Below are positions 3,741 through 38,497 of a stretch of DNA of 41,068 nt, piece by piece (positions within the stretch are counted from its first letter, which is position 1; every line of letters starts with the position of its first letter). The DNA is from Candidatus Woesearchaeota archaeon. GTDB lineage: Archaea; Nanobdellota; Nanobdellia; Pacearchaeales; GW2011-AR1. The notes beneath the pieces were generated by a model that saw nothing but the letters and a program-made list of their open reading frames with translations, did not search any database and had not been told where the DNA came from. Made by a program: the position numbers and the translations under genes. The stretch is from contig CAZTPM010000001.1 of the NCBI GenBank assembly GCA_964615065.1, positions 1-41,068 of the forward strand. Direction: 5' to 3'.

Positions 3741-4561
3741 TGTCAATAAAAAAATTTATTTTGATTTTATTTTTTGGAATATTCTTTATTCATTTAGTCG
3801 GGGCTGTTACAGACATAAGTATTAGTGTTGATAATATATTTTATGAAGGTGATGAAGTAAAATTTGCTTATAGATTTATTTCTACTCAAGATGAAACAAT
3901 AAATTATTTTGCAAACGTTGAGTGTCCAGGCTCACCTACGGCATCTCTTGAAATGAAAGAAGCTAATTTAGTTGCAAATGAATACTTTCAAGAAGTGTAT
4001 TCTTATGGATTTGTTGGTGAAAATGTTAAATCTGGGAATTGTGTCGCTTCAATTTTTATTTTGGAACCTTATGAGAAAAGTTTTGAAAAATCATTTAAAA
4101 TTGAAACCTTGGAAACTTTCGATTTTTCTTTAATCTTAACCAAAAAGGTTTTCATTCAAAATGAAGATATTGTAATAAATTATACTTCGGAAATTGAAAA
4201 TCCTTCAATAACAGCGACGTTAAATTATCCAGATAATTCAAGTGGGCAAATAAACTTGCCTTACTCGTTTAAAGCAAAGCAAATTGGAACATATGGATTA
4301 GAAGTTGAAGTTTCAAAACAAGGTTATAAAGATATTTCTGTTAAAGAGCAGTTTGGTGTGATTAAAAGTGAAGCAGATATTAATTTTGATGAAACTTCTG
4401 ATTTTTATGATGGTTCTAAAGAAGCAAATGAAAGCAAATTATTTAAGAATAATTCAATATTTTATATTTTTGGGGGGTCTCTGATTCTTTTAATTTTATT
4501 AATTATTATTTTCTTTATTGTTAAGAAAAAGAAGAACCTTAATTCTTCTTCTGAATTGTGA
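3737..4561 (+). CDS. Secreted/membrane-anchored protein (N-terminal signal anchor, C-terminal TM plus KKKK stop-transfer), function unknown
   Basis: ATGA start/stop overlap with the upstream gene. Hydrophobic N-terminus FILILFFGIFFIHLVGA and C-terminal TM IFYIFGGSLILLILLIIIFFIVKKKK. Confidence 0.5.
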   Translation: MMSIKKFILILFFGIFFIHLVGAVTDISISVDNIFYEGDEVKFAYRFISTQDETINYFANVECPGSPTASLEMKEANLVANEYFQEVYSYGFVGENVKSGNCVASIFILEPYEKSFEKSFKIETLETFDFSLILTKKVFIQNEDIVINYTSEIENPSITATLNYPDNSSGQINLPYSFKAKQIGTYGLEVEVSKQGYKDISVKEQFGVIKSEADINFDETSDFYDGSKEANESKLFKNNSIFYIFGGSLILLILLIIIFFIVKKKKNLNSSSEL

Positions 4562-4651
4562 AAGAATTATTAATTTTTTTAGAAGAATTTTTCGCGTTTA
4601 GGTGATAATTTTTTCCTTTCTCTCTAACACGAAAAACATTTTAAACTACGC

Positions 4652-6958
4652 ATGCGTGTTTTGTATATGAAGTTTAATCCAGATTCAAAATTATATTCTT
4701 ATGAAGTGCAGAGGGAGGCAGGTGAAGATGTTCTTTATATTAATTATCTTGGGGCACCATTTGTTCCGAGCTTGGCTGATTCTCCTGAAATTATGGAGAG
4801 AACAGTTGATTCTTTAATTGAAAATCCAAATGTTTCAAGGATTGTTTTTGTCCAGCAAAAAAATTATAATTATGATTTTGAAGAAACTTCTTTTCTTTTA
4901 GAAATTGCACAGCTTTATGTTTATTTAGTGAAGCAGGAAAAAATTTTGTCGCAGGAAAAATTAGTTACAAATGTTGAAGGTGTTTTTTCAAAAAGGTATA
5001 ACCAGCTTTTTTCATTTTTACTTCTGTTAAAACAAGATCCTGTTTCTGCTTATTTTGAATTAAAAAAAATTATAATTGAATCTAAAATAAATTTAGACAA
5101 GATAAGTCCAGATAGAAGGACAGATTTTATGAGTTATGCGCACCTTCTTGAGAAAATTTTTAATTTGTTTGTAAAAACAAAAATTATTCAAAAAGCAAAA
5201 CCTTTTTTGGCAAATTATTCTAAAGGGAATCGGGAAATTTATTATAAATTATTTAGGCCAGATGTCATACCAAATTTTACTTTTACTCGTTTGGTTTCTG
5301 ATTTGCCTGAAGACGCAGAAATTATTGACCAGTATGAAATTTCAAATAGCGACTATGATATTTCGAATGTTACTATTTTGAAAAAAAAGAATGATGCAAA
5401 ATTTATTTATCACCTGATGCCCCCTGAAAATTCTTTGAGCGAAGATCATAACATGCTTTTAAATTTAGCAAGAAGTGTTTTGGTTGAGCACCAGCCCCAA
5501 GCAGAAGAATTTACAGATACAGAAAGGACAAGGCAAGTTTTTTTTAATATTTCAAAGGATTTATTGCAAGACCTTGCCCAGACAAAACAAATTAGTTTAA
5601 GTTATTCTGGTTTGAATAAATTAGCAACTATTTTAGTTAGGCATACAATTGGTTTTGGATTGATTGAAGTTTTGTTACAAGACAAAAAACTTCAGGATAT
5701 TTCTTTGAATGCACCTATTCCTTTGATACCTATTTTTTTAAAGCATCAGGATTTTGATGAATGTTCTTCAAATATCTTACCGAGTCAAGAAGATGTTGAT
5801 TCTTGGGCTGCAAAGTTTAGGATGATTTCTGGTCGGCCTCTTGATGAAGCAAATCCGATTTTGGATACCCAGTTAGAAATTGGAAAAATTAGAGCACGAA
5901 TAGCGATTATTCAGGCACCCTTATCTCCTGATGGTTTGGCCTATTCAATTAGAAGGCACAGAGAAGATCCTTGGACACTTCCTCTTTTTGTTCAGAATAA
6001 AATGTTAAATCCTTTTGCAGCTGGTTTGTTGAGTTTTTTAATTGATGGTTCACGAACCCTTTTAGTTGCAGGAACAAGAAGTTCAGGGAAAACCTCTTTG
6101 CTGGGGAGTTTAATGCAAGAAATTATTCCTAAGTTTAGAGTTATTGTTATTGAAGATTCATTGGAATTACCTGTTGAATCCCTGAGAAAGTTGAAATATG
6201 ATATTTTACGAATGAAAGTTCGTTCTGCTTTGTTGAAAACAACAACAGAAGTTTCTGCAGAGGACGGGATTAGAACAAGTTTGCGTTTAGGTGATAGTTG
6301 TTTAATAATTGGAGAAGTTAGAAGTGTGGAAGCAAAAGCACTTTACGAAGCAATGCGTATTGGTGCTTTAGCAAATGTTGTGGCAGGAACAATTCATGGT
6401 GCGTCGCCATATGGTGTTTTTGATAGGGTTGTAAATGATTTAGGGGTTCCTGCAACTTCTTTCAAAGCAACAGATATAATTGTTATTTGTAATCCTGTAA
6501 AATCAGCAGATGGTTTGCATTCATGGAAAAGGGTTGTTCAAATTTCAGAAGTCAGAAAACATTGGGAAAAAGATCCTTTGCTTGAACAGGGCTTTGTTGA
6601 TTTAATGAAATACAATGTTGAAAAAGACGAGCTTGAACCAACAGAGGACTTGAGGAATGGAGACAGCGAGATAATAAAAAATATTGCTTCAAGTATAAAA
6701 GGTTGGGCAGGAAATTGGGATGCTGTTTATGATAATATTTTACTTCGTGCAAAAATAAAAAAAGAACTTGTTGATATTGCTAAAAAAATTGGGGACAATA
6801 ATCTTTTGGAAGCTGAATTTAACGAGCAATCAAACAATGCTTTTCATCAAATTTCAGATGAAATTGTAAAAGAAGTCGGATTACCCTTAAGTGAGTTTGT
6901 TTTCCCTGAATGGAAAAAGTGGTTGGAAGAAGAGTTGAAGAAGAAGGAGAAATTGTAA
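4652..6958 (+). CDS. Type IV pilus/archaellum-type secretion ATPase (FlaI/ArlI/PilB/VirB11 superfamily) with long N-terminal extension
   Basis: Walker A GTRSSGKTSLLGS, Walker B-like RVIVIEDSLEL, IIGEVRS box and GTIHGAS His box. Alternative start at ATG 4667. Confidence 0.8.
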   Translation: MRVLYMKFNPDSKLYSYEVQREAGEDVLYINYLGAPFVPSLADSPEIMERTVDSLIENPNVSRIVFVQQKNYNYDFEETSFLLEIAQLYVYLVKQEKILSQEKLVTNVEGVFSKRYNQLFSFLLLLKQDPVSAYFELKKIIIESKINLDKISPDRRTDFMSYAHLLEKIFNLFVKTKIIQKAKPFLANYSKGNREIYYKLFRPDVIPNFTFTRLVSDLPEDAEIIDQYEISNSDYDISNVTILKKKNDAKFIYHLMPPENSLSEDHNMLLNLARSVLVEHQPQAEEFTDTERTRQVFFNISKDLLQDLAQTKQISLSYSGLNKLATILVRHTIGFGLIEVLLQDKKLQDISLNAPIPLIPIFLKHQDFDECSSNILPSQEDVDSWAAKFRMISGRPLDEANPILDTQLEIGKIRARIAIIQAPLSPDGLAYSIRRHREDPWTLPLFVQNKMLNPFAAGLLSFLIDGSRTLLVAGTRSSGKTSLLGSLMQEIIPKFRVIVIEDSLELPVESLRKLKYDILRMKVRSALLKTTTEVSAEDGIRTSLRLGDSCLIIGEVRSVEAKALYEAMRIGALANVVAGTIHGASPYGVFDRVVNDLGVPATSFKATDIIVICNPVKSADGLHSWKRVVQISEVRKHWEKDPLLEQGFVDLMKYNVEKDELEPTEDLRNGDSEIIKNIASSIKGWAGNWDAVYDNILLRAKIKKELVDIAKKIGDNNLLEAEFNEQSNNAFHQISDEIVKEVGLPLSEFVFPEWKKWLEEELKKKEKL

Positions 6959-7010: not shown

Positions 7011-9758
7011 ATGGTGAATTTATCAGAAAAAGAAACTAGAAAGAAAATTATAGACCCAATTTTAGAAAGAACTGGATGGAAGAAAGAATATATTAAAGAA
7101 GAAATTAATTCTGTGAAATCTAATTTCGGAACTAAAAAATTTGTTTTTTTTAAGAAAGATAATATAGAGGTCGGAGATAGATTTATTGATTATCTTCTTT
7201 TGGATGAAGATAATTCTCCTTTAGCTATTATTGAAGCAAAGAAAACATCGATAAGTGTTGAAAAGGGAGAAATTCAATCTAGAACCTATCGAGAAGATAT
7301 TGAGAAACAAACAAAAAAAAGAATCCCTATTTTTTTAACAAATGGGAAACAATGGTATTATGTTGACGAGAAAGATAGAAGAAGACAAGTTCCCCTTCCA
7401 TTTGAACAAAAAGATTTGCATAGGAGAGTTCATCTTTTTGAAAGAGAGCGAGATCCAACTAAAGTAAAGATTAAACCAGAGATTGTGGATAGAGATAGAA
7501 GTATAGAAGCAGTAAAGGTTATTTTAGAACATCTCGAAAAAGGAAATAGGTCCGCACTAATTAATATGGCCACAGGAACGGGGAAGACAAGAGTCGCTAT
7601 GGCAATTATAGACGTATTAATGAGATCAAATTCTGTTAGAAATGTTTTATTTATTGTAGATAGAATTTCTTTATCGAATCAAGCTAAAGAAAATGGGTTT
7701 AAAGAATTTTTTCCAGGAGAGCCTGTTTGTGAATTAAATGTTGAAGGATTTTCTGAAAGTGCTAGGCTTTATGTTTCAACCATTCAAACCTTAATGAGTG
7801 ATAAAAAGCCAAGAGGAAAATTTTATGAAAAATTTGGAATAGGCGCTTTTGATTTAATTGTTTATGATGAAGCCCATCGTTCTTATTATGATAAAAATAA
7901 TGATGTCTTAAAATATTTTGATGCTATCAAACTGGGTTTAACTGCAACCCCTTCAAAAAAAGAAGGGAAAGATACTTTTGAATTATTTGGTTGTGAAGAT
8001 AAAGAACCAACATATAAATATGATTATGATTCTGCTGTTGATGATGAAGTTCTAGCTCCTTATTCTGCAGAGGTCATTGAGACTAAGATTTTATCATTAG
8101 GGATAGAAGGAAAGAAATTAAGCAAAGAATTAAGATTTCAATTGGAAAAACAAGAAGAGAACCCCTATGATTTTCAAACTCCTGGAGCAAGATTTGAAAA
8201 ATTGTTTACAGATTCAAGAACAAATGAATTAATTGTTAGAGAGTTTATTGATAGGTGCTATAAAACAGATGATAGGGTTCCATGTAAGACTATCTTCTTT
8301 TGTGCGAGTGTTAAGCATGCTGAATCTTTAAAAAATATCTTTGATAGGCTTTATCCTAATTTAGCTAGAGAAGTAAGAGTTATTACTTCAGACAGAACCA
8401 GATATATGGATGAAGTTAGAAGATTCAAAAGAAACTCTACTCCGAGAATTGCTTTATCTGTCGGAGTTTTAGATACAGGTATTGATATTCCTGAAATTAT
8501 GAATTTGGTTTTTGTTAAACCTGTTTTTTCTTATATAAGATTCTGGCAAATGCTTGGAAGAGGAACTAGAAATTTAGAAACATGTAAGCATAAGGATTGG
8601 TTGCCTCATAAAGATGGAGTAGCTGTTAAAGATAATTTTCTTATTTTAGATTTTAAATTTGGAGAGCATTCAAATGTAGAGTTTCATGATTTAGATAGGA
8701 CAAGAGAAAAGTCCAAATTAATCGACGCTAAAACAAGAATCTTCTTAGAGCAGGTTGATTTGCTTGAAAAAGATTTAAAGGAAAATGAGAAGGAAGTTAT
8801 TGAAAAGGCGATTATAGAAACTGTGAGAAGTATTGACATTGATTCTCCTCTTGTTTTAGAAAAGAAAAATATAATCAAAAAAGTTATTTCTAAAAAATTT
8901 GATTTGAAAGAGCATGTCAAAGAATTGAGGGAAGAAATTGCTCCTTTACTTATTTATTCTAAATCTGAAAATTCAAAAGTTTATGCATTTATTGGAAAAT
9001 GTGTTAAGTTGTTTGACGCTATTAAAGAAGACTATAAGGATAAGATTTGGAAGATTGAAGAGTTTGTTAAAGAAAGAGTTGAGAATGTTTGGGAGAGAAG
9101 TTTGGAAGTGGTTAGAGAGAAAGATGAGCAAATAAAAAAAGTTTTGGGAGATGAATTTTGGCAAGACATAACTTTTGAAGATGTTGATTTCTTAATTAGA
9201 GAAATTGCTTCTTTAATGATTTATTATGAAATCTATGGAAAGAAGATGTTGAGGATTGATGCTCCTGATGTTGTTATTAATGTTGAAAAATTTGAGATGA
9301 AAGTTAAAGAAAATCCTAATTTTGAATATTTCTTAAATAGCAATCCTTTAATTAAAAAAATTAAAGAAAGTAAAGGAGTTACATCTAGAGAATTGCTTGA
9401 AATTGAAAAGAAACTTTCAAGTTTAAATTCTGCTTGGACAATTGAAAATATTCAAAATATTAGAAAAATAGATTTTGTATTATTTTTAAGACAGCTTTTA
9501 CAGGTAATTGATTTGCCTGACCCTCAAGAAATGATTAAGCAAGAATTTGATAAGTTTGTGATTAGCAGGAATGAGCATTATAATTCAGAGCAATTGAAAT
9601 TTCTGAGATTATTAAAACAGGTTTTTGTAAGAGCAAAGCATATTGAATTAAAGGATTTTGCAAAGCATCCTTTGACAGAAGAAAGGCCCTTGGATTTGTT
9701 TGAAAAAAAGCAGTTGATTGAGATTGTTGATAAGTGTAATAAGTTGAGGTGGCGGTGA
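7011..9758 (+). CDS. hsdR: Type I restriction enzyme R subunit (COG4096/EcoEI-like)
   Basis: HsdR_N-like N-terminus EKETRKKIIDPILERTGW. Helicase motifs MATGTGKTRVA (I), VYDEAHRS (II, DEAH), GLTATP (III) and QMLGRGTR (VI). Long helical C-terminal tail. Confidence 0.85.
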   Translation: MVNLSEKETRKKIIDPILERTGWKKEYIKEEINSVKSNFGTKKFVFFKKDNIEVGDRFIDYLLLDEDNSPLAIIEAKKTSISVEKGEIQSRTYREDIEKQTKKRIPIFLTNGKQWYYVDEKDRRRQVPLPFEQKDLHRRVHLFERERDPTKVKIKPEIVDRDRSIEAVKVILEHLEKGNRSALINMATGTGKTRVAMAIIDVLMRSNSVRNVLFIVDRISLSNQAKENGFKEFFPGEPVCELNVEGFSESARLYVSTIQTLMSDKKPRGKFYEKFGIGAFDLIVYDEAHRSYYDKNNDVLKYFDAIKLGLTATPSKKEGKDTFELFGCEDKEPTYKYDYDSAVDDEVLAPYSAEVIETKILSLGIEGKKLSKELRFQLEKQEENPYDFQTPGARFEKLFTDSRTNELIVREFIDRCYKTDDRVPCKTIFFCASVKHAESLKNIFDRLYPNLAREVRVITSDRTRYMDEVRRFKRNSTPRIALSVGVLDTGIDIPEIMNLVFVKPVFSYIRFWQMLGRGTRNLETCKHKDWLPHKDGVAVKDNFLILDFKFGEHSNVEFHDLDRTREKSKLIDAKTRIFLEQVDLLEKDLKENEKEVIEKAIIETVRSIDIDSPLVLEKKNIIKKVISKKFDLKEHVKELREEIAPLLIYSKSENSKVYAFIGKCVKLFDAIKEDYKDKIWKIEEFVKERVENVWERSLEVVREKDEQIKKVLGDEFWQDITFEDVDFLIREIASLMIYYEIYGKKMLRIDAPDVVINVEKFEMKVKENPNFEYFLNSNPLIKKIKESKGVTSRELLEIEKKLSSLNSAWTIENIQNIRKIDFVLFLRQLLQVIDLPDPQEMIKQEFDKFVISRNEHYNSEQLKFLRLLKQVFVRAKHIELKDFAKHPLTEERPLDLFEKKQLIEIVDKCNKLRWR

Positions 9759-12015: not shown

Positions 12016-13148
12016 AAATTAAACAATTACCTCAAGGATGGAAAGAAGTTGAACTTGGAGAACTTTTGAATTACGAGCAACCAACAAAATACATTGTTGA
12101 AGATACAAATTATAATGATAATTATAACACGCCAGTTTTGACAGCAGGCAAATCATTTATTTTAGGGCACACAGATGAAACAGATGGAATTTATAATAAA
12201 TTACCCGTAATAATTTTTGATGATTTTACTACAGATAATAAATTTGTGAATTTTAAATTTAAAGTAAAGTCTAGTGCCATGAAATTATTAACTCCAAAAA
12301 ATAAAGAAATTGATTTAAAATTTATCTTCTTATTAATGCAGACAATTAAAGTTAATTCAATAACCCATAAAAGATATTATCTATCTAAATACAGAAACAT
12401 CAAAATCCCCCTCCCCCCACCCCCCACTCAAAAACAAATAGTTTCAATTTTAGAAAAAGCCGAAAAACTAAAACAAAAAAGAGAACAAGCCGATAAATTA
12501 ATGGAGGATTATTTGAAAAGTGTTTTTAATGAAATGTTTTTGAAAAGAAAAGGAGAGTTTAAAATAAAAAAATTAGTAGATATAACTAAAAAGATAACTG
12601 ATGGAAAGCATGGAGATTGCGAGAATGAAGAAAATTCAGGATATTATTTTATTAGTGCAAAAGATATTTTTAAGGGGGAAGTTCATTATGAAAATTCTAG
12701 ACAAATAAAAAAAGAAGGATATTTAGAAGTCAATAAAAGAGTAAATCTTGAAATAAAAGATGTTTTGATTACAAATAGTGGAACAATTGGAAAAACGGCA
12801 ATAATGAATAATAGAGAGAATGTGGATAAAACAACATTTCAAAAAAGTGTCGCTATAATAAAACCAAATAAAAAATTAATACAATCTATTTATTTAAAAA
12901 ATTTTTTAGATACAATCATAATTAATTTAATGAGCACTTCTTCAGGATCTTCTCAAAAAAATCTTTTATTAAAAGATATAAGAAATATCAAAATCCCCCT
13001 CCCGCCTCTTGCTCTTCAAAAAAAATTTGCTTCTATTGTTGAGCGGGTTGAAAAATTAAAAGAAAAACAAAAACAATCTAAAGAAGAAATAAGTCAGATG
13101 TTTGATGTGCTGATGCAGAAGGCGTTTAAGGGGGCGTTGATGAAATGA
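12012..13148 (+). CDS. hsdS: Type I R-M specificity subunit
   Basis: Two target-recognition halves, each followed by a conserved helix: IKIPLPPPPTQKQIVSILEKAEKLKQKREQ and IKIPLPPLALQKKFASIVERVEKLKEKQKQ. Confidence 0.85.
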   Translation: MKIKQLPQGWKEVELGELLNYEQPTKYIVEDTNYNDNYNTPVLTAGKSFILGHTDETDGIYNKLPVIIFDDFTTDNKFVNFKFKVKSSAMKLLTPKNKEIDLKFIFLLMQTIKVNSITHKRYYLSKYRNIKIPLPPPPTQKQIVSILEKAEKLKQKREQADKLMEDYLKSVFNEMFLKRKGEFKIKKLVDITKKITDGKHGDCENEENSGYYFISAKDIFKGEVHYENSRQIKKEGYLEVNKRVNLEIKDVLITNSGTIGKTAIMNNRENVDKTTFQKSVAIIKPNKKLIQSIYLKNFLDTIIINLMSTSSGSSQKNLLLKDIRNIKIPLPPLALQKKFASIVERVEKLKEKQKQSKEEISQMFDVLMQKAFKGALMK

Positions 13149-23042: not shown

Positions 23043-23435
23043 ATGAAAAAAAGAGGAACAATTTTAGTTGAAAATATTATTTTTATTATTTTGAATTTGC
23101 TTTTTTTGAGCATTCTTGTTTTGTTTTTAGTGAAGCAGGGAAGTGGGGCTGTTTTATTAGAGCAATCATATGCCAAACAAATTGCTTTGTTGATTGATTC
23201 GGGAGAGCCTGGGATGACTTTGAAAATAAATATGGAGAAGGCAAAAAAACTTTCTGAAAAAAATGGAATTAATTTTGAAGAAGTTGTAAAAATAGATGAA
23301 AATCTTGTAACAATTAAACTTAGTGAGGGAAGTGGTTATTCATACTCTTTTTTTAATGATGTTGAGGTCGCTCCTCCTTATACAGATGGAGAATTTTATA
23401 TTTTAAATATAGATAAAAAATGGCAGATAAAATAA
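23043..23435 (+). CDS. Type IV pilin-like protein
   Basis: MKKRG|TILVENIIFIILNLLFLSILVLFLV has Gly at -1 and Glu at +5. ATG 23043 is preferred over 23028. Confidence 0.5.
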   Translation: MKKRGTILVENIIFIILNLLFLSILVLFLVKQGSGAVLLEQSYAKQIALLIDSGEPGMTLKINMEKAKKLSEKNGINFEEVVKIDENLVTIKLSEGSGYSYSFFNDVEVAPPYTDGEFYILNIDKKWQIK

Positions 23436-23914
23436 TTTCAGTTTATTGGTTTGCAATTTTAATAATTGTAGCTGGTGGGATAATTGCGATGGTGAATATA
23501 TTTTATAATTCTCCTTACGATGTTCGGGAAATTGAAGCAGAAATTTTAACAAATAAGGTCGGAGATTGTTTTTCTGATTTGGGTTATTTAGAATCAGGAA
23601 TTTTTGATGGACAAGGTTTTTTAATAAATGAAAATAATTTTTTAGAAAAATGCAAATTGAATTTTAATACTCCTGAAGGAGATTTGCAATATTATGTTCA
23701 AGTAAATCTTTTTCAAGCAGGAGATTTAGAAAATTCTTTTTTTGAGGTTTTACAAGGAAATAAAAATCTTAAAGCAGATTGTTTTATTTCAGGAGAATAT
23801 GAAAAATTATCAAAATGTGTTGAAAAAGGATTTTTTACATTAGACAAATCTGGAAATCTTTATTTAATTAAAATTTTGTCTGTTATAGATAAATCTGAAA
23901 AAAATGTCAAGTAA
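23420..23914 (+). CDS. Pilin-like/pilus-associated protein
   Basis: N-terminal hydrophobic helix VYWFAILIIVAGGIIAMV. Overlaps both neighbouring genes. Confidence 0.4.
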   Translation: MADKIISVYWFAILIIVAGGIIAMVNIFYNSPYDVREIEAEILTNKVGDCFSDLGYLESGIFDGQGFLINENNFLEKCKLNFNTPEGDLQYYVQVNLFQAGDLENSFFEVLQGNKNLKADCFISGEYEKLSKCVEKGFFTLDKSGNLYLIKILSVIDKSEKNVK

Positions 23915-24161
23915 GAAAGCTCAAATTTCTGAAACAATGGTTTGGGTGGTTGCAACCTTGATAATTATTGTTGTTTTAATTGTATTTATTTTTATTTCTT
24001 CTTCATTTGCAAAAGCAAAAAATTTGACAATTAGAGATCTTAAATTAAGTTCAGAAGGAGAAGATGTTGATTTACTTGAAACAAAAACAGAAATTGCATA
24101 TGGTTTGGTTTCAGAAGAAAATAAAAAAATAATTGAAAATTGGAGAAAAGAAAATGAATAA
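23904..24161 (+). CDS. Small pilin-like protein
   Basis: MSSKKAQISETMVWVVATLIIIVVLIVFIFI. Confidence 0.4.
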   Translation: MSSKKAQISETMVWVVATLIIIVVLIVFIFISSSFAKAKNLTIRDLKLSSEGEDVDLLETKTEIAYGLVSEENKKIIENWRKENE

Positions 24162-24417
24162 AAAAGGAGATATTCCTGTTACTGTTTTGGGTTTAGGAGT
24201 TGTAATTATTTGTGGTTTAGCTCTTCTTAGTTTTTTTACTTCAAGCATTCAAACTAGGAATTTTTTTGTTGGGATAAATTTGGTTGAAAAAGCATCTGCT
24301 CAAATTGAAGAAAATTCTTTTAATGGAAATGAAGTTGAAATTAATTTGCAAAAAACAGAATCAAGTTGGTTTAGTAAAAAAGAAACTTTAATTTTTTCTG
24401 TAAATTATAAACCCTGA
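24154..24417 (+). CDS. Small pilin-like protein
   Basis: MNKKGDIPVTVLGLGVVIICGLALLSFF. ATG 24154 is preferred over 24133. Confidence 0.4.
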   Translation: MNKKGDIPVTVLGLGVVIICGLALLSFFTSSIQTRNFFVGINLVEKASAQIEENSFNGNEVEINLQKTESSWFSKKETLIFSVNYKP

Positions 24418-24427
24418 TTTAACAGAT

Positions 24428-24632
24428 TTGTTTGGTTTAATTTTAAAATTAAAAATTAGTTCATAAACAAGTTGCTCAATGCATTGGCTCCAAAATTAAC
24501 TCTGTTAGATTTTTTTGCTTAATATTTTTAATACAAAAAATCTGACAAGTCAGTTTTAAATTTTTAATCGTGAACAAAGCGAACCAAATTTGCATGTAAA
24601 AATTAAGGGGACATACGTCAGTTGCTTTCACA
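24428..24632 (+). repeat. Intergenic repeat element, copy A (about 205 nt); paralogue at 28948-29192
   Basis: Shared blocks TTGTTTGG, ATTTTAAAA, AAAATTAGTTC, TTGCTCAA. A near-identical core AAT(C/T)GTGAACAAAG(C/T)GAACCAAATTT..GTAAAA..TAAGGGG..GCTTTCA at 24566-24632. Confidence 0.6.
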
Positions 24633-24681
24633 ATCCTTGATTTAACATAAACTTTATAAACAAAATAATCTTAAATTAAAT

Positions 24682-25023
24682 ATGAATAAAGCAGGTCAAG
24701 GATTAAGCACTAGTGCAATAATTTTAATTATTTTAGGTGTTATTATCCTTGTTATTTTGGTTCTTGGATTTTCAATGGGTTGGAAACAAATCGCTCCTTG
24801 GGTAGAAAAAGGAAAAGATAATGTTCAAACAATTGTAACTTCATGTGGAATTGCATGTTCAGAGGGATCAATTTATGATTATTGCACAAAAGAAAGAGAG
24901 TTAAAAGCAGATAAGCTTCCTGGTGGTGAAAAGAGCGTGAAAAAAACATGTTATGGATTTGCAACTGAAACAGGTTATGAATCTTATGGAATAGCAGAAT
25001 GTTCTACAATTGATTGTTCGTAA
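24682..25023 (+). CDS. Pilin (candidate major pilin) with class III signal peptide and Cys-rich globular domain
   Basis: MNKAGQGLSTSAIILIILGVIILVILVLGF. Stand-alone gene with its own TATA-like TTTATAAA about 25 nt upstream. Six Cys in the C-terminal domain. Confidence 0.55.
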   Translation: MNKAGQGLSTSAIILIILGVIILVILVLGFSMGWKQIAPWVEKGKDNVQTIVTSCGIACSEGSIYDYCTKERELKADKLPGGEKSVKKTCYGFATETGYESYGIAECSTIDCS

Positions 25024-25107
25024 TTTTGTTTTTTAGTAAAAAGATTTAATTAAATGTTATTAACTGGTTTTGGTTAGATATATAAATTCTTTTTTCTATT
25101 TGGAATT

Positions 25108-25212
25108 ATGGCAAGAGGAAATCTTGAAACAAGAAATAAACGAAAAGATAAAAAAAAGGAAAAAAAGAAACATCCTTATAAAATAGGTGGAAAAAGGAGA
25201 ACTCAAAAATAA
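25108..25212 (+). CDS. Very basic 34-aa ORF (not in track); coding status uncertain
   Basis: Hand translation MARGNLETRNKRKDKKKEKKKHPYKIGGKRRTQK. Confidence 0.2.
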   Translation: MARGNLETRNKRKDKKKEKKKHPYKIGGKRRTQK

Positions 25213-25239
25213 TTTAAATTGTTTTTGATTTTATTTTAA

Positions 25240-26289
25240 ATGTATGAGGTGATTTTTTTATTGGTCTTGGGAATGTTGTGGGTTTTATTTGCAACTTTGC
25301 AAGATTTGAAAACTAATGAAGTTGCTAATTGGGTTAATTTTTCTTTGATAATTTTTGCTCTTGGTTTTAGGTTTTTTTATGATTTCTTTGAAAATTCGAC
25401 TCAAAATGTTTTTGGAACTCTTCTTGTTTTTCTAATAACTTTTTTTATATTAATGGGAATGATTTTGTTTTTTGAAGCTTCTTTTAAAAAATTCAAAAAC
25501 GAAGTTTGGTTTTTTATTGGTGTTTTCTGTATAGGACTTATTTTGTTATTTTTTGAATTTAAATTCCAAATTCTTTTTAATTTATTTTCTCAAAATAGTT
25601 TTTCTTTTTTATATTTTGGTGTTTTAGGTTTGGTAATTTTCTTTTTAATTGGGAATTTCTTGTATTATAGCAGATTATTTGCAGGAGGAGATGCAAAACT
25701 CATGACTGCTCTTGGTTCTATTTTGTTTTTCTCTGAAAGTTTATCTTCCAATATAAATAATTTGGTTTTGTTCTTGGTTTTGTTCTTTTTTGTTGGGACA
25801 CTTTATGGTTTAATTGCAAGTTTTTATTTTTGTTTAAAGAATTTAAAGAATTTTAAAAAAGAATTTTGGAAAAGATTACAAAAAATAAAAAAAACTATTT
25901 ATGGATTTATGATTTTTGGTTTGGTTTTAATGGCAATAGGTTTTACTGAAAATTTATTTTTTGTTTTTGGGATTCTGATTTTTCTTTTTCCTGGTCTCTA
26001 TTTATTTGCAAAATCTATTGATGAGGTTTGTATGATAAAAAAAATAAAAACAGAAAAATTAACACAAGGGGATTGGCTTTATAAAAATTTGAAAATTGGA
26101 AATAAGATGATTGAAGCAAATTGGAATGGCTTGGCAAAAAAACAAATTGATTTTATTAAAAAGAAAAAGGATTTTGTTTTAATCAGAAAGGGAATCCCTT
26201 ATGTGCCAACTTTTTTAATTAGTTTTATTTTCTTGGTTGCCGTTAGGTTTTTTGGATTCTTAAAAAATATTTTTCTTTTTTTAAATTAA
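25240..26289 (+). CDS. Archaeal prepilin/preflagellin peptidase (A24 family, FlaK/PibD-like)
   Basis: First Asp motif TLQDLKTNEV and second Asp motif FAGGDAKLM. Polytopic membrane protein. C-terminal domain ending in GIPYVPTFL. Confidence 0.85.
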   Translation: MYEVIFLLVLGMLWVLFATLQDLKTNEVANWVNFSLIIFALGFRFFYDFFENSTQNVFGTLLVFLITFFILMGMILFFEASFKKFKNEVWFFIGVFCIGLILLFFEFKFQILFNLFSQNSFSFLYFGVLGLVIFFLIGNFLYYSRLFAGGDAKLMTALGSILFFSESLSSNINNLVLFLVLFFFVGTLYGLIASFYFCLKNLKNFKKEFWKRLQKIKKTIYGFMIFGLVLMAIGFTENLFFVFGILIFLFPGLYLFAKSIDEVCMIKKIKTEKLTQGDWLYKNLKIGNKMIEANWNGLAKKQIDFIKKKKDFVLIRKGIPYVPTFLISFIFLVAVRFFGFLKNIFLFLN

Positions 26290-26906
26290 GGAATTCTTTT
26301 TGGCAACCAAATTTTTTCTGTTTTAATTTGTTTTGGTTTGAGTTTTTTGATTAATTTTGGCTTAGGTTTTTTCAAAAGAGTTTGTTGAACAAGTTCAAGT
26401 TCTTTTTCTTCTGCTTTGTATCTTTTAGAATCAATTTTTTCGTCTTTGTAAATAGGAATAAGATTAATTATTTCGTGCCCAAATAAATTCGCAGAAGCAA
26501 GCAGGATTTCTTTTGGTTTGAATTTTGATTTTATTTTTTTAGAAATTTTATCTGTTAATTTTTCTGTTTTTTTAATTAAGCTCTCTTTTTTTATGTTGTG
26601 GTCTTTTGGGATTATTAGAACATGTGCTTTTGAAATTGGGTTTATTTCTAAAACAGCTATTGCTTCGGAATTTTCATTTATTTTTCTACTTGGAATTGAG
26701 CCCGAAGCAATTGTACAAAAAACACATTCTGTTTGTTGGTCAGAATTTTTAATTAAGTTATTTTGTTTTAGAAAATTTTCAAGTTCGTGTTTATTCATTT
26801 CTTGGATTTGCGAAATCGCTGTTGCTTTTTTGTCTTCAGGAAAGTTTTCTTGGATTTGTTGAATAAGTTGGGATTTGACTTGTTCAATTTGTTGTTTTTG
26901 TAGCAT
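26286..26906 (-). CDS. HIT-superfamily protein with N-terminal coiled-coil extension and degenerate histidine triad
   Basis: CVFCTIASGSIPSRKINENSEAIAVLEINPISKAHVLIIPKDH matches the HIT N-terminal core. The expected HxHxHxx position reads GHEIINLIP. Confidence 0.6.
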   Translation of the reverse strand: MLQKQQIEQVKSQLIQQIQENFPEDKKATAISQIQEMNKHELENFLKQNNLIKNSDQQTECVFCTIASGSIPSRKINENSEAIAVLEINPISKAHVLIIPKDHNIKKESLIKKTEKLTDKISKKIKSKFKPKEILLASANLFGHEIINLIPIYKDEKIDSKRYKAEEKELELVQQTLLKKPKPKLIKKLKPKQIKTEKIWLPKRIP

Positions 26907-26915
26907 TTTAGTTCT

Positions 26916-27548
26916 TTATTTTTTGATTATTTTTTTAGGAACATATGAATTTATTACATACATTTCTTTTCCTTTTAGATTTTTAAATTTATACCATCTA
27001 AAGTCGCAATTAGGGGTTTTTATTGTAATAAAATTTTTCATTGTTTTAAAGAAATTTTTTGAAGAGTGTTTTATTGCCCAGAAAAAGTTTCCAGTCCATA
27101 ATCCAAAGTACATAGAAAATATAACAAACAAAAACCAACTTTCAAAAGAAACACTATTTTCATTTAGTTTTTTTTCTATTTTCTTTGTTTGTCCATATTT
27201 TTGTTTAAAATCTTTTGAATTGTAATATTTTTCGTCTTTTAATTTTTCTTTTATTTGTTTTGCTATTTTAATCCTTTTTTTGATTAAGTGATTAAACTCT
27301 TTTTCTAAAAGAATCGGTTTCATTAATGTAAATTTAAGAATTTTATAATATAATGAGATAAGAAAGGAATAAACCGCAGTGTAGAAAATTATTAAGACAA
27401 TTAAATTTAATAAATTATTTTTGAATACTTGGGCATTTTTGGAGTAAATAAAGATGATTAAAGAGATTAATAAAAAAAGAATGAATGTGGCAACTAAAAA
27501 AACAAGAGGTTCTATCTTGTTCCAAAACTTTTTTGTTTTTTTAAACAT
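26916..27548 (-). CDS. Membrane protein, unknown function
   Basis: Several hydrophobic helices, for example LVFLVATFILFLLISLIIFIY and LIVLIIFYTAVYSFLISLYY. Confidence 0.4.
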   Translation of the reverse strand: MFKKTKKFWNKIEPLVFLVATFILFLLISLIIFIYSKNAQVFKNNLLNLIVLIIFYTAVYSFLISLYYKILKFTLMKPILLEKEFNHLIKKRIKIAKQIKEKLKDEKYYNSKDFKQKYGQTKKIEKKLNENSVSFESWFLFVIFSMYFGLWTGNFFWAIKHSSKNFFKTMKNFITIKTPNCDFRWYKFKNLKGKEMYVINSYVPKKIIKK

Positions 27549-27744
27549 AATTTAATCAGAAAAAGTGGATTAATATATTTAACTATCCTCGGCTTTGGTG
27601 AATTCCTATAAGATTATTTTTTGATTTTTGGTAATTCCCACTATAAATCCTCATTTCATTCGGAAACCCTCCCTTAATTTTTATTGCTTTACCAAATAAA
27701 TTAATCCAAAAACCAAAAATTTAAATGGTTTCACCAAAGCTATT

Positions 27745-28017
27745 TTATCCAAAAGCTCTTCGCATATCTATTACTTGGGAAGAACTAACATTTTCAATTT
27801 TTTCTAAGCCCTCTTCGATTGGTTCCAGTTCTTGGCTTTCGTCTATTTCAAAGAAAAGAATAACTGCTTTTAGCCCGAATGCAATTGGTTCTTCTTCAAA
27901 CCTGCATTTTTTCCCGCCTTTTTTTTCAACAAGTATTTTTGCATTTCCTTTTATTTTTTCTAAATCTACTTCTGGTGAAGTTGGCATTAATTTTATTTTT
28001 AGTAAAGCAGTTCCCAT
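27745..28017 (-). CDS. Archaeal translation elongation factor 1-beta
   Basis: About 90 aa, MGTALLKIKLMPTSPEVDLEKIK...EEPIAFGLKAV...VIDMRRAFG. Typical aEF-1-beta length and motifs. Confidence 0.8.
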   Translation of the reverse strand: MGTALLKIKLMPTSPEVDLEKIKGNAKILVEKKGGKKCRFEEEPIAFGLKAVILFFEIDESQELEPIEEGLEKIENVSSSQVIDMRRAFG

Positions 28018-28124
28018 ATTTTAGGTTGAGAAAAAGAGTTTATAAGTTTTTTGAAGGTTATATTTTTTTAAAGTTGTTAATTAGTAATCGTTAGATTTTT
28101 AAGTAGAATTATCTTTAATAATTT

Positions 28125-28481
28125 ATGAAAAAAGAAATAATAATTTATCTTGTGGTTGCTTTAATGATTGGGTTAATAATCGGGTTAGTTCTTGCGAATT
28201 TATCTTCTTCAAATAATCAAGTATCTAATAATGAAAATTACAAAGATATTGGGGTATATATTTATGGTAAATATGATGGGAAAAGCACACAATTTGTTGT
28301 TGAGCAAGAATATTCTTCAGCAGGAGTTGATGAGCGGACTTGTATAAATGAATTTCTTGATCGGAACGTACATTATGATCAATATGATCATGGTGGAAAA
28401 TATTATTGCAAATTAATTGCAGCCACTTTTTCCTCTAAGTATAATAAGCAAACTGCTATTTGTGATTGTTATTACAAATAA
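28125..28481 (+). CDS. Small membrane-anchored Cys-containing protein, unknown
   Basis: N-terminal TM IIIYLVVALMIGLIIGLVLANL. Confidence 0.35.
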   Translation: MKKEIIIYLVVALMIGLIIGLVLANLSSSNNQVSNNENYKDIGVYIYGKYDGKSTQFVVEQEYSSAGVDERTCINEFLDRNVHYDQYDHGGKYYCKLIAATFSSKYNKQTAICDCYYK

Positions 28482-28603
28482 ATTAATTTAATCAGCGTCA
28501 ACACTTATTAGGATTTTTAACTTTATATTTATTGCTAATTATGACGAGTTTTTTTTGTGAATTGAATAAAGTTAGAAGTTAAGTTTTTAAGGGGTCGTTA
28601 TAT

Positions 28604-28876
28604 TTATTTAAATTTTTTTATGATATGCTCTTTTTTCTCACTAATTAATGTTATCTTATTTTCATCTAATAACTTTTGAAATTTAGTTGTAAATTCTTCT
28701 AAATTATTGAAAAAAGTTTGCTTTGATTTTAGATCTTTAGATTTATTTGTAAGCAAAGTTATTACCCCATTTCCCCCTGCTGTTTTTTTATTTGATTCTT
28801 CTGGAAATTTATCAGTAAAAAACCCAACCTTAAACCAAATCATTTTCTTGTCTTTATTTTTTATTTCTTTAATCAT
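28604..28876 (-). CDS. Hypothetical 90-aa protein
   Basis: ORF only. I recognise no motif. Confidence 0.3.
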   Translation of the reverse strand: MIKEIKNKDKKMIWFKVGFFTDKFPEESNKKTAGGNGVITLLTNKSKDLKSKQTFFNNLEEFTTKFQKLLDENKITLISEKKEHIIKKFK

Positions 28877-28947
28877 TTTTTAGATATAATGTTTAATCTT
28901 TATATTTTAAGTGGAACCTTCTTTATAAATGTGCTTATTAAAGAATC

Positions 28948-29192
28948 TTGTTTGGAATTTGATTTTAAAACCGAAAATTAGTTCGCAATAAATTGCTCAA
29001 ATTAATATAACTTCAAAATCGCCTTTGGCAGATTTTTCCGTCGTTAAAATTGTTAATATGCAAAATCCTAAATAATCTTAATTATTTTTTTAAAATTTTG
29101 GCTTGACGAAGTTTGGCAAAATTTATTAATTGTGAACAAAGTGAACCAAATTTAAAGGTAAAATAAGGGGGTATATGTTAGTCGCTTTCATA
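28948..29192 (+). repeat. Intergenic repeat element, copy B (about 245 nt); paralogue of 24428-24632
   Basis: Same ordered blocks as copy A. Core at 29128-29192. Ends 44 nt before the rpa ATG, compared with 50 nt for copy A and the pilin ATG. Confidence 0.6.
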
Positions 29193-29235
29193 TGAACACA
29201 CAAATACTTAAAAATGGTAAGAGTTTTTTTCATAG

Positions 29236-30189
29236 ATGGCTGAAGGAAATTATGAAAAGATTTTAGACAGAATTTCTAGGGCGTCGGGTTTGGAAAAAGA
29301 GGAATTAGAAAGAAGAGTTGAAGCAAAGCGGGCAAAGCTTGCTGGTCTTATTAGTAAAGAAGGTGCTTCTCAGGTGGTTGCTGCTGAGCTTGGTATTTCT
29401 TTTGATGAAGAAAAATTAAAAATAAATGAATTGCTTTCTGGGATGAGAAAAGTGAATGTGGTTGGTAAAATTATTCAGTTGTTTCCTGTTCGAACTTTTA
29501 CAAAAAATGAAAAAGAAGGGAAAGTTGTAAATTTTGTGCTTGCCGACGAGACCTCAAATGTGCGTGTTGTTTTGTGGGATGTTAATCATATCGCTTTAAT
29601 TGAAAACAACCAAATTAAACAAGATAGTGTTGTGGAAATTACAAATGCAAGTATGAGGGACAATGAAATTCACGTGGGCAGTTTTTCAGATTTGAAATTA
29701 AGCAAAGAAATTTTAGAAAATGTTAAAACAGAAAAAATCGTTAAAGAAAAAAAAATAGTTGAATTTAGATTGCAAGATTCTGTGAGCACGAGAGCTTTTA
29801 TTGTTCAAAATTTTGAGCCAAGGTTTTTTTATGTTTGTCCTGAATGTAAAAAGAAAGCTAGTCCAGAAGGAGAAAATTTTGTTTGTGTTGAACATGGAAA
29901 GGTTATTCCAGAAAAAAGAGCATTGATTAATTTAGTTTTAGATGATGGAACTGAAACAATTAGGTCTGTTTTATTTCATGAGCAACTTTCTAAAATTGGT
30001 TTTACAGATTTGGAAAATACTGAGGAAATATTAAAGCAAAAACAAAATCTTTTAGGAAAAGAAATGATTTTTTCAGGAAATATTAGAAATAATAAATTTT
30101 TCAACAACCCAGAATTTATTGTTGATGATGCAAAAGAAGTTGATTTAGATGCACTAATAATAGATTTGGAAAAAACGTCAAGTTTATAA
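29236..30189 (+). CDS. rpa: Replication protein A-like ssDNA-binding protein (OB folds plus zinc ribbon)
   Basis: N-terminal YEKILDRISRASGLEKEELERRVEAKRAKLAGLISKEGASQVVAAELGI. OB-fold VVGKIIQLFPVRTF...VVNFVLADETSNVRVVLWD. Zinc ribbon CPECKKK..x..CVEHG. Confidence 0.75.
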   Translation: MAEGNYEKILDRISRASGLEKEELERRVEAKRAKLAGLISKEGASQVVAAELGISFDEEKLKINELLSGMRKVNVVGKIIQLFPVRTFTKNEKEGKVVNFVLADETSNVRVVLWDVNHIALIENNQIKQDSVVEITNASMRDNEIHVGSFSDLKLSKEILENVKTEKIVKEKKIVEFRLQDSVSTRAFIVQNFEPRFFYVCPECKKKASPEGENFVCVEHGKVIPEKRALINLVLDDGTETIRSVLFHEQLSKIGFTDLENTEEILKQKQNLLGKEMIFSGNIRNNKFFNNPEFIVDDAKEVDLDALIIDLEKTSSL

Positions 30190-30211: not shown

Positions 30212-31426
30212 ATGAAAAAAGAGGAACTACCTATTTTAGTTGGATTGGTTTTAGTAGGTTTTTTTATTTTATTTATTTTAGCGTCGTCTGTGGGTAATTT
30301 AAGTTTGACTGGGCATGTTACAAGTATGGATGAATTTGAAAATCAAACATCTTGTGAAGGGGGGGGGTATGTTTGGTATTCGGATGCTTGTTATGATGAA
30401 CAGCCTGTTTGTGATATTAATAATTTGAATTTATGCAATGAAACAAGTTGTGAGGGTGTAGGATATTGGTATGATGCTAATGATAATGAGACCTTAACTT
30501 GTAATGCAGAATCTGAACCTGTTTGTGATGCTAATGATTTAACTTTATGTTTAGATGAAATAAATTGCACTACCCTTGGAAATGGATATTGGTATGATGG
30601 CTCTTGTAATGCAGATGAACAACCTTCTTGTAGTAATGATTTAACTTTATGTTTAGATGAAATAAATTGCACTACCCTTGGAAATGGATATTGGTATGGT
30701 AGCTCTTGTAATGTAGGAGCACAACCTGTTTGTGATGTTAATAATTTAAATTTATGTGATGAAACAAATTGTGATGGTGTTGGGTATTGGTATGATAGCT
30801 CTTGTAATGCAGATGAACAAACATGTGCAGAAGAATGGAATTGTGGTAGTTGGTCAGATTGTTCAGGGACCTCTCAAACAAGAACTTGCACAGACACAAG
30901 TGAATGTGGAACAGAAGAAGATAAACCAATAGAAACTCAAGAATGTGAAGAAGAAGAAATAATTATAACAACAGAAGAAGATGAAGAAGAAACAACTCAA
31001 ACAGAATCCACAACGAAAACAGTTGAACAAATTATTGCAGAAATGGAAGCTTCACAAAACACATCTAATGAAGAAGAAATTTCTGAAGAAAAAAATTCAG
31101 AATCTTTAGGAGAAATTACAGGGGGATTTGTTGAAGGAGAGTTTAATGAATCTGAATGTGATGGTTGTGTTTATGATAAAAAGAAATGTTATAACTTTGA
31201 AAAGAGAAAGAATAATAGTTATTGCACAGAAGAAGGTTGGATTGTTCAGAAAGAAATAAATGTTACTTGTGTTGAAGATTTTGAATGTTTGAGTAATTCT
31301 TGTGAAGAAGAAAAATGTGGAGATTATAATTGGTTAAGAAAGTTCTTTGATTGGGTTAAAAATATTTTTGTTAAAGAAATTCAGATTAATGAAAATGAAA
31401 CAACAGTTGTTAATTCAACTCAATAG
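30212..31426 (+). CDS. Secreted cysteine-rich repeat protein with acidic linker
   Basis: Signal anchor, then about six units of C(D/S).N(D/N)L.LC.(D/E)..C...G.GYWYD.SCNADEQP. Acidic EEEIIITTEEDEEETTQTE linker. C-terminal Cys-rich domain. Confidence 0.55.
   Translation: MKKEELPILVGLVLVGFFILFILASSVGNLSLTGHVTSMDEFENQTSCEGGGYVWYSDACYDEQPVCDINNLNLCNETSCEGVGYWYDANDNETLTCNAESEPVCDANDLTLCLDEINCTTLGNGYWYDGSCNADEQPSCSNDLTLCLDEINCTTLGNGYWYGSSCNVGAQPVCDVNNLNLCDETNCDGVGYWYDSSCNADEQTCAEEWNCGSWSDCSGTSQTRTCTDTSECGTEEDKPIETQECEEEEIIITTEEDEEETTQTESTTKTVEQIIAEMEASQNTSNEEEISEEKNSESLGEITGGFVEGEFNESECDGCVYDKKKCYNFEKRKNNSYCTEEGWIVQKEINVTCVEDFECLSNSCEEEKCGDYNWLRKFFDWVKNIFVKEIQINENETTVVNSTQ
30533..30698 (+). repeat. 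102-bp-period tandem repeat inside the Cys-rich protein gene
   Basis: The 64-nt stretch AATGATTTAACTTTATGTTTAGATGAAATAAATTGCACTACCCTTGGAAATGGATATTGGTATG is identical at 30533-30596 and 30635-30698. Confidence 0.8.
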
Positions 31427-31460
31427 TGCAGATTTGTAAAACCTGATCACTGTTTTTATA

Positions 31461-31486
31461 TAAGGGGGTTTGTCTCGTTCCTTTCA
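31461..31486 (+). promoter_or_regulatory. Bipartite upstream motif TAAGGGG-N10-TTCCTTTCA (copy C) upstream of radA
   Basis: Matches the architecture of the copies at 21137, 24604 and 29164. Lies about 118 nt before ATG 31605. Confidence 0.3.
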
Positions 31487-38424: not shown

Positions 38425-38497
38425 AGCCCCATAGTTCAGTGGTCAAGAATTCAAGGTTTTGGACCTTGAGACCCAGGTTCGAATCCTGGTGGGGCTA
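38425..38497 (+). tRNA. tRNA-Gln (anticodon TTG)
   Basis: Folded by hand. 7-bp acceptor AGCCCCA/TGGGGCT with an A1-U72 pair. D arm GTTC/GAAT. Anticodon stem CAAGG/CCTTG with loop TT-TTG-GA. T arm CCAGG-TTCGAAT-CCTGG. Discriminator A. CCA is not encoded. Confidence 0.9.

Follow-up and report, generated by a model that had tools for sequence, protein, structure and literature searches.

The two homologous non-coding stretches found in the window (the whole stretch of 41,068 nucleotides that was analysed, corresponding to contig C1 of the host genome) are very probably members of an IS481-like MITE family, whose matching insertion sequence (IS), encoding an rve-type DDE transposase, is present in the same genome. 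This is an already known kind of mobile DNA; what is new is the annotation of this family and of its parent IS. The host genome (G000) is a Woesearchaeal (DPANN) draft of 654,908 bp in 105 contigs, with 29% GC and an estimated completeness of 78%; two further genomes of the same genus are referred to below as G001 and G002.

Results

Two copies in the window

The first-pass annotation had described a duplicated non-coding element ending shortly before the ATG of two plus-strand genes. Aligned with MAFFT, positions 24418-24681 and 28930-29235 showed a mean column identity of 78% with a single 37-nt indel, and every ordered block listed in that annotation as common to the two gaps was present in the alignment. 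The homologous spans are hereafter called copy A and copy B. Their 3' block is 84% identical over 44 nt according to a repeat finder, and a longer stretch of the 3' core is 82% identical over 72 nt. In nhmmer searches of the whole 655-kb genome, copy A as query retrieved copy B with E = 3.3e-11, and copy B retrieved copy A with E = 5.3e-11; because of these reciprocal values, the similarity lies far above that of AT-rich intergenic background. The proximity to the genes also holds, as copy A ends 49 nt and copy B 43 nt upstream of the respective plus-strand ATG. The relevant features of the window are as follows.

24410-24424, no strand: left target-site duplication of copy A, (AA)CCCTGATTTAACA, present as a single copy in the sister genomes
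24425-24634, plus strand: MITE copy A, short form; family HMM match at 24448-24631, E 1.4e-13; absent from G002:C11 and G001:C78
24575-24632, plus strand: right-end stretch of copy A (the core of the first-pass annotation), aligned with the right ends of the IS and of the MITEs
24633-24647, no strand: right target-site duplication of copy A, (AT)CCTTGATTTAACA, matching the left copy at 13 of 15 positions
24653-24660, plus strand: TATA-like box TTTATAAA of the pilin-like gene, outside the element and identical in G001 and G002
24682-25023, plus strand: 113-aa gene (previously called pilin), from the ORF list, with a hydrophobic N-terminus
28930-29192, plus strand: MITE copy B, long form with the 37-nt insert; family HMM match at 28968-29185, E 1.1e-69
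29236-30189, plus strand: rpa-like gene, with Pfam matches to the tRNA_anti-codon OB fold, DUF2240 and Rep_fac-A_C

Other parts of the earlier description have to be modified. The word 'duplicated' is correct for a homologous pair that is real, but it understates a repeat with about 20 copies in the genome. The 65-nt core is a true shared block, and yet merely the right subterminal and terminal part of the element. The statement that no ORF is present stands in the sense that nothing is conserved, but a mechanical 51-aa frame starting with GTG does occur on the minus strand of copy A.

The repeat family

An iterated nhmmer search of G000 converged on 20 matches, i.e. about 20 copies of a repeat of 204-256 nt, located as follows (a descending range is given as reported by the search).

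C1: 24451-24589 and 28971-29151
C2: 13759-13936, 21299-21171 and 22819-22721
C3: 5064-5203
C6: 19578-19457
C15: 8585-8706
C16: 3243-3420 and 9312-9184
C17: 9117-8959
C18: 6889-7026
C21: 3565-3714
C32: 5654-5797
C33: two fragments
C34: one match, weak
C40: 4479-4659
C74: 1689-1830
C99: 1184-1046

The copies occur in two forms, a long one (copy B) and a short one lacking about 37 nt (copy A). All but one of them are intergenic, and the exception, on C40, extends 10 nt into a convergent ORF at the 3' end of the latter. With respect to the next gene downstream, 11 copies are co-directional and 8 convergent; therefore, as far as orientation is concerned, the element is not bound to promoters.

Among 40 relatives, G001 contains at least 37 matches and G002 at least 11, with 86-96% identity to copy B, while genomes of other genera contain at most single short matches. 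A pattern scan of genome contigs likewise pointed to the two congeners alone (named there 'Nanoarchaeota archaeon KR13_N2.mb.17' and, for the other, 'Candidatus Woesearchaeota archaeon SRP178699_co1_166'), apart from four stray hits, which is about the number expected by chance. Approximately 50 of 56 metagenome loci had family matches, mostly near full length, and the same kind of scan did not find the family in viral contigs. The two window copies are, thus, no private pair.

In addition to the 20 matches, a solo right end is present on contig C42 of G000. This locus (C42:4618-4673) is orthologous to the G001 locus L053, where G001 has a full-length MITE and G000 only the last ~55 nt of its right end; the remnant reads as an example of MITE decay by internal deletion. 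Runs of N and contig ends were observed in or beside MITE copies at C17 (~9000-9050) and C15 (~8720-8800), and a metagenome locus, L097, unites flanks of two different G001 copies (loci L050 and L056), left from one copy and right from the other. Evidently, the repeat breaks or mis-joins these MAG assemblies.

Ends, target-site duplications and empty sites

The element had been proposed to be a small RNA gene with paralogues, a MITE-like repeat or a large upstream regulatory module common to both genes. Of these, the MITE-like repeat is the one that agrees with the data, on account of inverted ends, site-specific target duplications, empty sites in the sister genomes and a matching autonomous IS. 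The copies are short and devoid of any conserved ORF. A 258-nt consensus, built from younger copies of the congeners, begins with TGTGTAGCCAAT.GACATATGTCGATAGGAAACCGAAAATTAGTTCGC and ends with GTGAACAAAGTGAACCAAATTTAAGTGTAAAATAGGGGG.GACATATGTC...GCACA. The terminal inverted repeats are imperfect; they comprise TGTG...CACA, the palindrome ACATATGT near both ends, and the inner words AAATTAGTTCGC / GTGAACCAAATTT.

In five or six young copies, target-site duplications could be recognized that are mostly 15-16 bp long (range 12-19) and whose sequence is unrelated between sites; examples are GAGGTTCTTCTCCCC(G), CCTTAACTTGAGATAA, CT(G/A)TAATTAAATGCGCGAA, AGAATCAGTAAT and TAATTTCTTTG. In many older copies, the duplications are eroded or there are none. 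The insertions are polymorphic among congeners: five insertions of G001/G002 are missing at the orthologous places in G000, and one is common to G001 and G000.

The ends of the IS found in G000 (C10/C5 and C89), in G018, in G021 and in metagenome loci align with the MITE ends. On the left, about 50 nt are shared (TGTG.., the ACATATGT palindrome and AACCGAAAATTAGTTCGC), and on the right about 30 nt (TAGGGG.GACATATGT....GCACA). Sharing is confined to the ends, and the MITE interior of about 170 nt has no match to the transposase gene.

The insertion site of copy A

The body of copy A is bounded by TGT...CACA at 24429-24632, with the CACA end at 24632; between it and the clearest 13-nt repeat there are GATT on its left side (24425-24428) and AT on its right side (24633-24634). 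The four bases GATT, between the left duplication and the first TGT, are unexplained. The right-end stretch contains tandem GTGAAC(A/C)AA words, a TA-rich stretch, TAAGGGG, ACATACGT (the counterpart of the family palindrome) and the CACA terminus. The duplication can be summarized as CC(C/T)TGATTTAACA, and the stop codon TGA (24415-24417) of the upstream ORF 24133-24417 falls within its left copy.

At this site the present genome reads AACCCTGATTTAACA, then the element, then ATCCTTGATTTAACA, while in G001 and G002 the target is present once, as (T)CCCTTGATTTAACA or TTCCTTGATTTAACA. Positions 4226-5247 of G002:C11 correspond to window 23400-24424 and positions 5235-6892 to window 24635-26300, so that the flanks abut or overlap; in G001:C78 the flanks are likewise adjacent and the element is absent. 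Because both sisters lack the element and have the target once, copy A was inserted after the split of the host species from its two sequenced congeners. It landed between the upstream stop codon and the TATA-like box of the pilin-like gene, leaving both intact. That box would act as the promoter of the gene, judging from the archaeal promoter consensus. The 113-aa gene has no Pfam match of its own; on its 3' side lies an A24 prepilin peptidase gene (25240-26289, Pfam Peptidase_A24 match).

The insertion site of copy B

Copy B is 92.9% identical to the family consensus over 225 nt and lies in the divergent promoter region upstream of rpa. Its right end is firm at 29192 (..GCTTTCATA); its left end is uncertain, and may be the TGTGCTTATT at 28930 or fall at about 28937-28945. 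No target-site duplication is recognizable for copy B, and the region to its left has undergone rearrangement in each of the three genomes. To its right, homology with the rpa upstream region of G001 and G002 restarts at 29193-29198, and the conserved ATACTTAAAAATGG stretch before rpa sits downstream of the element. Since the TATA-like box and this stretch are conserved in the sisters and lie outside the elements, each of the two genes, pilin-like and rpa, has retained the upstream sequence that belongs to it.

Copies A and B have in common a left end that departs from the family consensus (..TTGTTTGG..TTT.ATTTTAAAA) and a likewise drifted right terminus, GCTTTCAY, despite one being a short and the other a long form. 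The drifted ends, the GATT and the missing duplication of copy B fit old copies that are probably immobile, leaving the assignment to the MITE family unchanged.

Farther downstream, a stretch before the next gene (window 31459-31486, ATAAGGGGGTTTGTCTCGTTCCTTTCA) is similar to the right terminus of copy B. Its local alignment to copy B is at the 99th percentile of random genome windows, and that to copy A is unremarkable. It was considered as a degenerate further copy and discarded, as the family HMM did not match it even with E values of up to 100 allowed; either an eroded solo end or a chance similarity may account for it.

Two repeats of another kind were seen in the window. Tandem units of ~102 bp, up to 92-95% identical, occur at 30384-30820, inside a 404-aa ORF (30212-31426) that directly follows rpa. 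A 96-nt direct repeat, 72% identical, is located at 12393-12488 and 12981-13076; its first copy has a C-rich tract, CCCCCTCCCCCCACCCCCC, which is unusual at 29% GC.

The partner insertion sequence and its transposase

A scan for the rve integrase core gave one match in G000. Positions 1-516 of contig C89 encode the last 171 aa of an rve DDE transposase, whose 5' part is lost at the contig start; the stop codon is directly followed by CCTACGACATATGTCATGACCGAATACACA, a right end of the MITE type (element 1-546). A second IS copy is split over C10 (1-380, minus strand) and C5 (22520-22719, minus strand), two contigs that overlap by 55 nt. This copy is defective: an internal deletion affects the catalytic core, the reading frame is interrupted by a TGA, and a run of nine A contains a frameshift. 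Both the TGA and the frameshift may be real or may result from errors of assembly. The copy is flanked by a 15/16-bp duplication, TTCAAAAAAATATGG / TTCAAAAAAATTATGG. Neither IS copy of G000 is demonstrably intact, one being deleted and carrying the stop and the frameshift, the other being cut by a contig end.

Outside the host genome, G018, a member of another genus, has a 756-bp derivative with both ends and a perfect 16-bp duplication, CCTTAATTCATAAACA, and G021 has an intact 283-aa ORF. Metagenome loci contain the intact IS of 951 bp, with the ends TGTATAAC...GCGCACA and the 15-bp duplication AACAAAATTTCATCG.

The 283-aa transposase matches Pfam rve (E 1.9e-12) and rve_3, and its sequence shows the motifs WQIDHSD, SDNGS and GKVER. 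The best NCBIfam model was that of IS481, NF033577 (E 9.4e-53), ahead of IS3 (E 2.7e-22, 79.5 bits) and ISNCY_2 (69.5 bits). With 179.6 bits, the protein does not reach the curated cut-off of NF033577 (224 bits), and for this reason we name it IS481-like (or IS481 family in the broad ISfinder sense), its membership resting on the rank of the best hit and on the features of ends and duplications. As to the latter, the termini are TGT...ACA and the duplications are 15 and 16 bp long. In IS481, duplications fall into classes of about 6 or about 15 bp, most members having 6 bp; the archaeal ISMac4 and ISA0963-1 produce 15-bp duplications, and TGT..ACA ends are of the IS481 type (PMC10045372).

More than 2100 homologues of the transposase were found, the top 120 being all 281-292 aa long and 72-91% identical. 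Many of them are on contigs of about 950-1100 nt, and some are labelled as DDE-type integrase/transposase of Nanoarchaeota or Pacearchaeota. One close homologue (78% identity) is labelled as belonging to the MAG of a Minisyncoccales (CPR) bacterium; this could be due to mis-binning or to transfer between co-occurring ultra-small organisms.

Several places were considered as possible sites of an autonomous element, and rejected. Beside the truncated copy on G000:C33, the neighbours are PheRS-alpha-like, RNase P subunit-like and UMP kinase-like, as judged by eye from the translations, and housekeeping genes were found beside the truncated copies on G001 C47, C82, C84 and C1. The inverted pairs at L114 and L132, 3.4-5 kb apart, are not the two ends of an IS but two complete MITEs with ordinary-sized ORFs between them. 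At L063 (G001:C84), a 391-aa ORF (5406-6581) has a match to Phage_integrase (tyrosine recombinase) at E 1.9e-5, which is weak and below the cut-off; a truncated MITE copy lies 400 nt upstream of this ORF, which probably has nothing to do with the MITE or its ends.

Discussion

Proposed mobilization in trans

The ends shared by the MITEs and the IS suggest that the MITEs would be mobilized in trans by the 283-aa transposase. The protein would bind the shared subterminal words, cut at the CA-3' ends, and join them to the target DNA with a stagger of about 15 nt, whose repair would give rise to the target duplications.

Alternative explanations

The location of the two window copies raises the possibility that, while being of transposon origin, they were co-opted by the pilin-like gene and by rpa as modules acting in cis on their regulation (as promoter, insulator or terminator hairpin). 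The copies end 43-49 nt before the start codon, approximately 10-20 nt upstream of TATA-like boxes, and the right part of the element itself has TA-rich words similar to TTTATATA. However, in the sister genomes the same genes lie behind the same TATA-bearing sequence without the element, and the orientation of the family to the next gene is unbiased, which speaks against a shared regulatory module; we consider such a co-option improbable. Most likely, the 43-49 nt indicate where a very compact genome tolerates insertions, rather than a function. In a more specific form, A and B would be a sub-lineage with a plus-strand hairpin, AAAGYGA / TYGCTTT, retained as an exapted MITE with a cis-regulatory or small-RNA role. 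Only these two copies share the terminal variant able to form the 7-bp plus-strand stem, which is complete in these 2 and in no other of 72 distinct right ends, and both of the differences between their stems preserve pairing. Still, two transitions that preserve wobble pairs are weak evidence, and folding of copy A as single-stranded DNA gave z = -0.67, i.e. no unusual structure. This form, too, seems to us to have little chance of being correct; if true, an ultra-small DPANN genome would provide a case of MITE exaptation, directly upstream of the promoters of rpa and of the pilin-like gene.

It is quite unlikely that the repeats represent small non-coding RNA genes that are paralogous and transcribed separately from one another. 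Such a family could well be multi-copy and intergenic with a well-conserved interior, as this one is, and TA-rich boxes do occur about 20-25 nt upstream of a conserved word, AAAATTAG, in several copies. Against it, the predicted stability is ordinary and the family is abundant in a single genus only. An Rfam scan, which had been suggested as a way to recognize an RNA, gave no support: with Rfam 15 at the gathering score, only a tRNA-Gln at 38425 was found in the window, and a permissive scan of 24300-29400 returned only mir-3747 with E 0.018, well below the gathering score and a chance match. The copy number is explained without any RNA function by insertion polymorphism, target duplications and the ends shared with the IS.

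Because of the duplication length of about 15 bp, a casposon was also considered as the source of the MITEs, which would then depend on a casposase of the Cas1 type for their movement. Casposons are mobilized by Cas1, reach kilobases in length with polB, and are site-specific. They have inverted ends, as the present elements do, and duplications of 14-15 bp (PMC6977970, PMC4046053), close to the 15-16 bp prevailing here (range 12-19). However, Cas1 (PF01867) is absent from G000, G001 and G002, while control genomes were positive; the insertion sites are many and unrelated; and the element ends match those of an IS with an rve DDE transposase instead. With a DDE partner found and no Cas1 in the genus, a casposon origin was dropped as having virtually no probability. 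The sole Cas1 of the family sample adjoins small ORFs and, from its gene neighbourhood, looks like part of a CRISPR adaptation module.

Comparison with known mobile elements

The identification of the elements as MITEs of an IS481-like IS can be viewed against several known systems. Like the archaeal IS481 members ISMac4 and ISA0963-1, with which it was compared by their published description, the partner IS has a single rve-type DDE transposase with an N-terminal helix-turn-helix part; its host, in contrast, is a DPANN Woesearchaeon, and its transposase scores below the curated IS481 cut-off of NCBIfam (179.6 vs 224 bits). Its size of about 1 kb is also that of IS481, as are the TGT...ACA termini and the 15-16 bp duplications (PMC10045372). 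With respect to non-autonomous derivatives of IS481, the difference is that the ~170-nt interior of the MITEs does not come from the coding region of the IS.

The ISNCY_2 model of NCBIfam, which we take to cover the IS1202 group, scored far below the IS481 model. The ISTde1 subgroup of the IS1202 family resembles the present IS in having 5'-TGT ends, 15-17 bp duplications and an IS481-related DDE transposase (bioRxiv 10.1101/2022.12.17.520857), but was described from bacteria only and has larger transposases. The IS481EU / Banshee elements of parabasalids also have TGT..ACA ends, 15-16 bp duplications and short non-autonomous derivatives (PMC10045372); they are, however, eukaryotic, with classes of 4, 15 and 25 bp per family, while only the class of about 15 bp was observed here.

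In general terms, the family behaves as prokaryotic MITEs do, being small, intergenic and taxon-restricted, with inverted ends and target duplications. A Woesearchaeal genome is among the most MITE-dense archaeal genomes in a census that gives MITE duplications as 2-10 bp (PMC11602168). Because of this definition, a family with 15-16 bp may have escaped recognition, and MITE definitions of this kind may miss such families.

Significance

What had been a candidate for a new RNA or regulatory element is replaced by an annotation as an IS481-like MITE with a 951-bp parent IS. The MITE family makes up roughly 0.6% of a genome smaller than 1 Mb, and accounts for many contig breaks and chimeric joins in these MAGs. 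Its insertions show that transposons were active after speciation in genome-reduced DPANN archaea. In addition, a very widespread archaeal group, with its more than 2100 homologues, is added to the 15-bp-duplication branch of IS481, a branch for which a close relation to the eukaryotic IS481EU transposons has been discussed.
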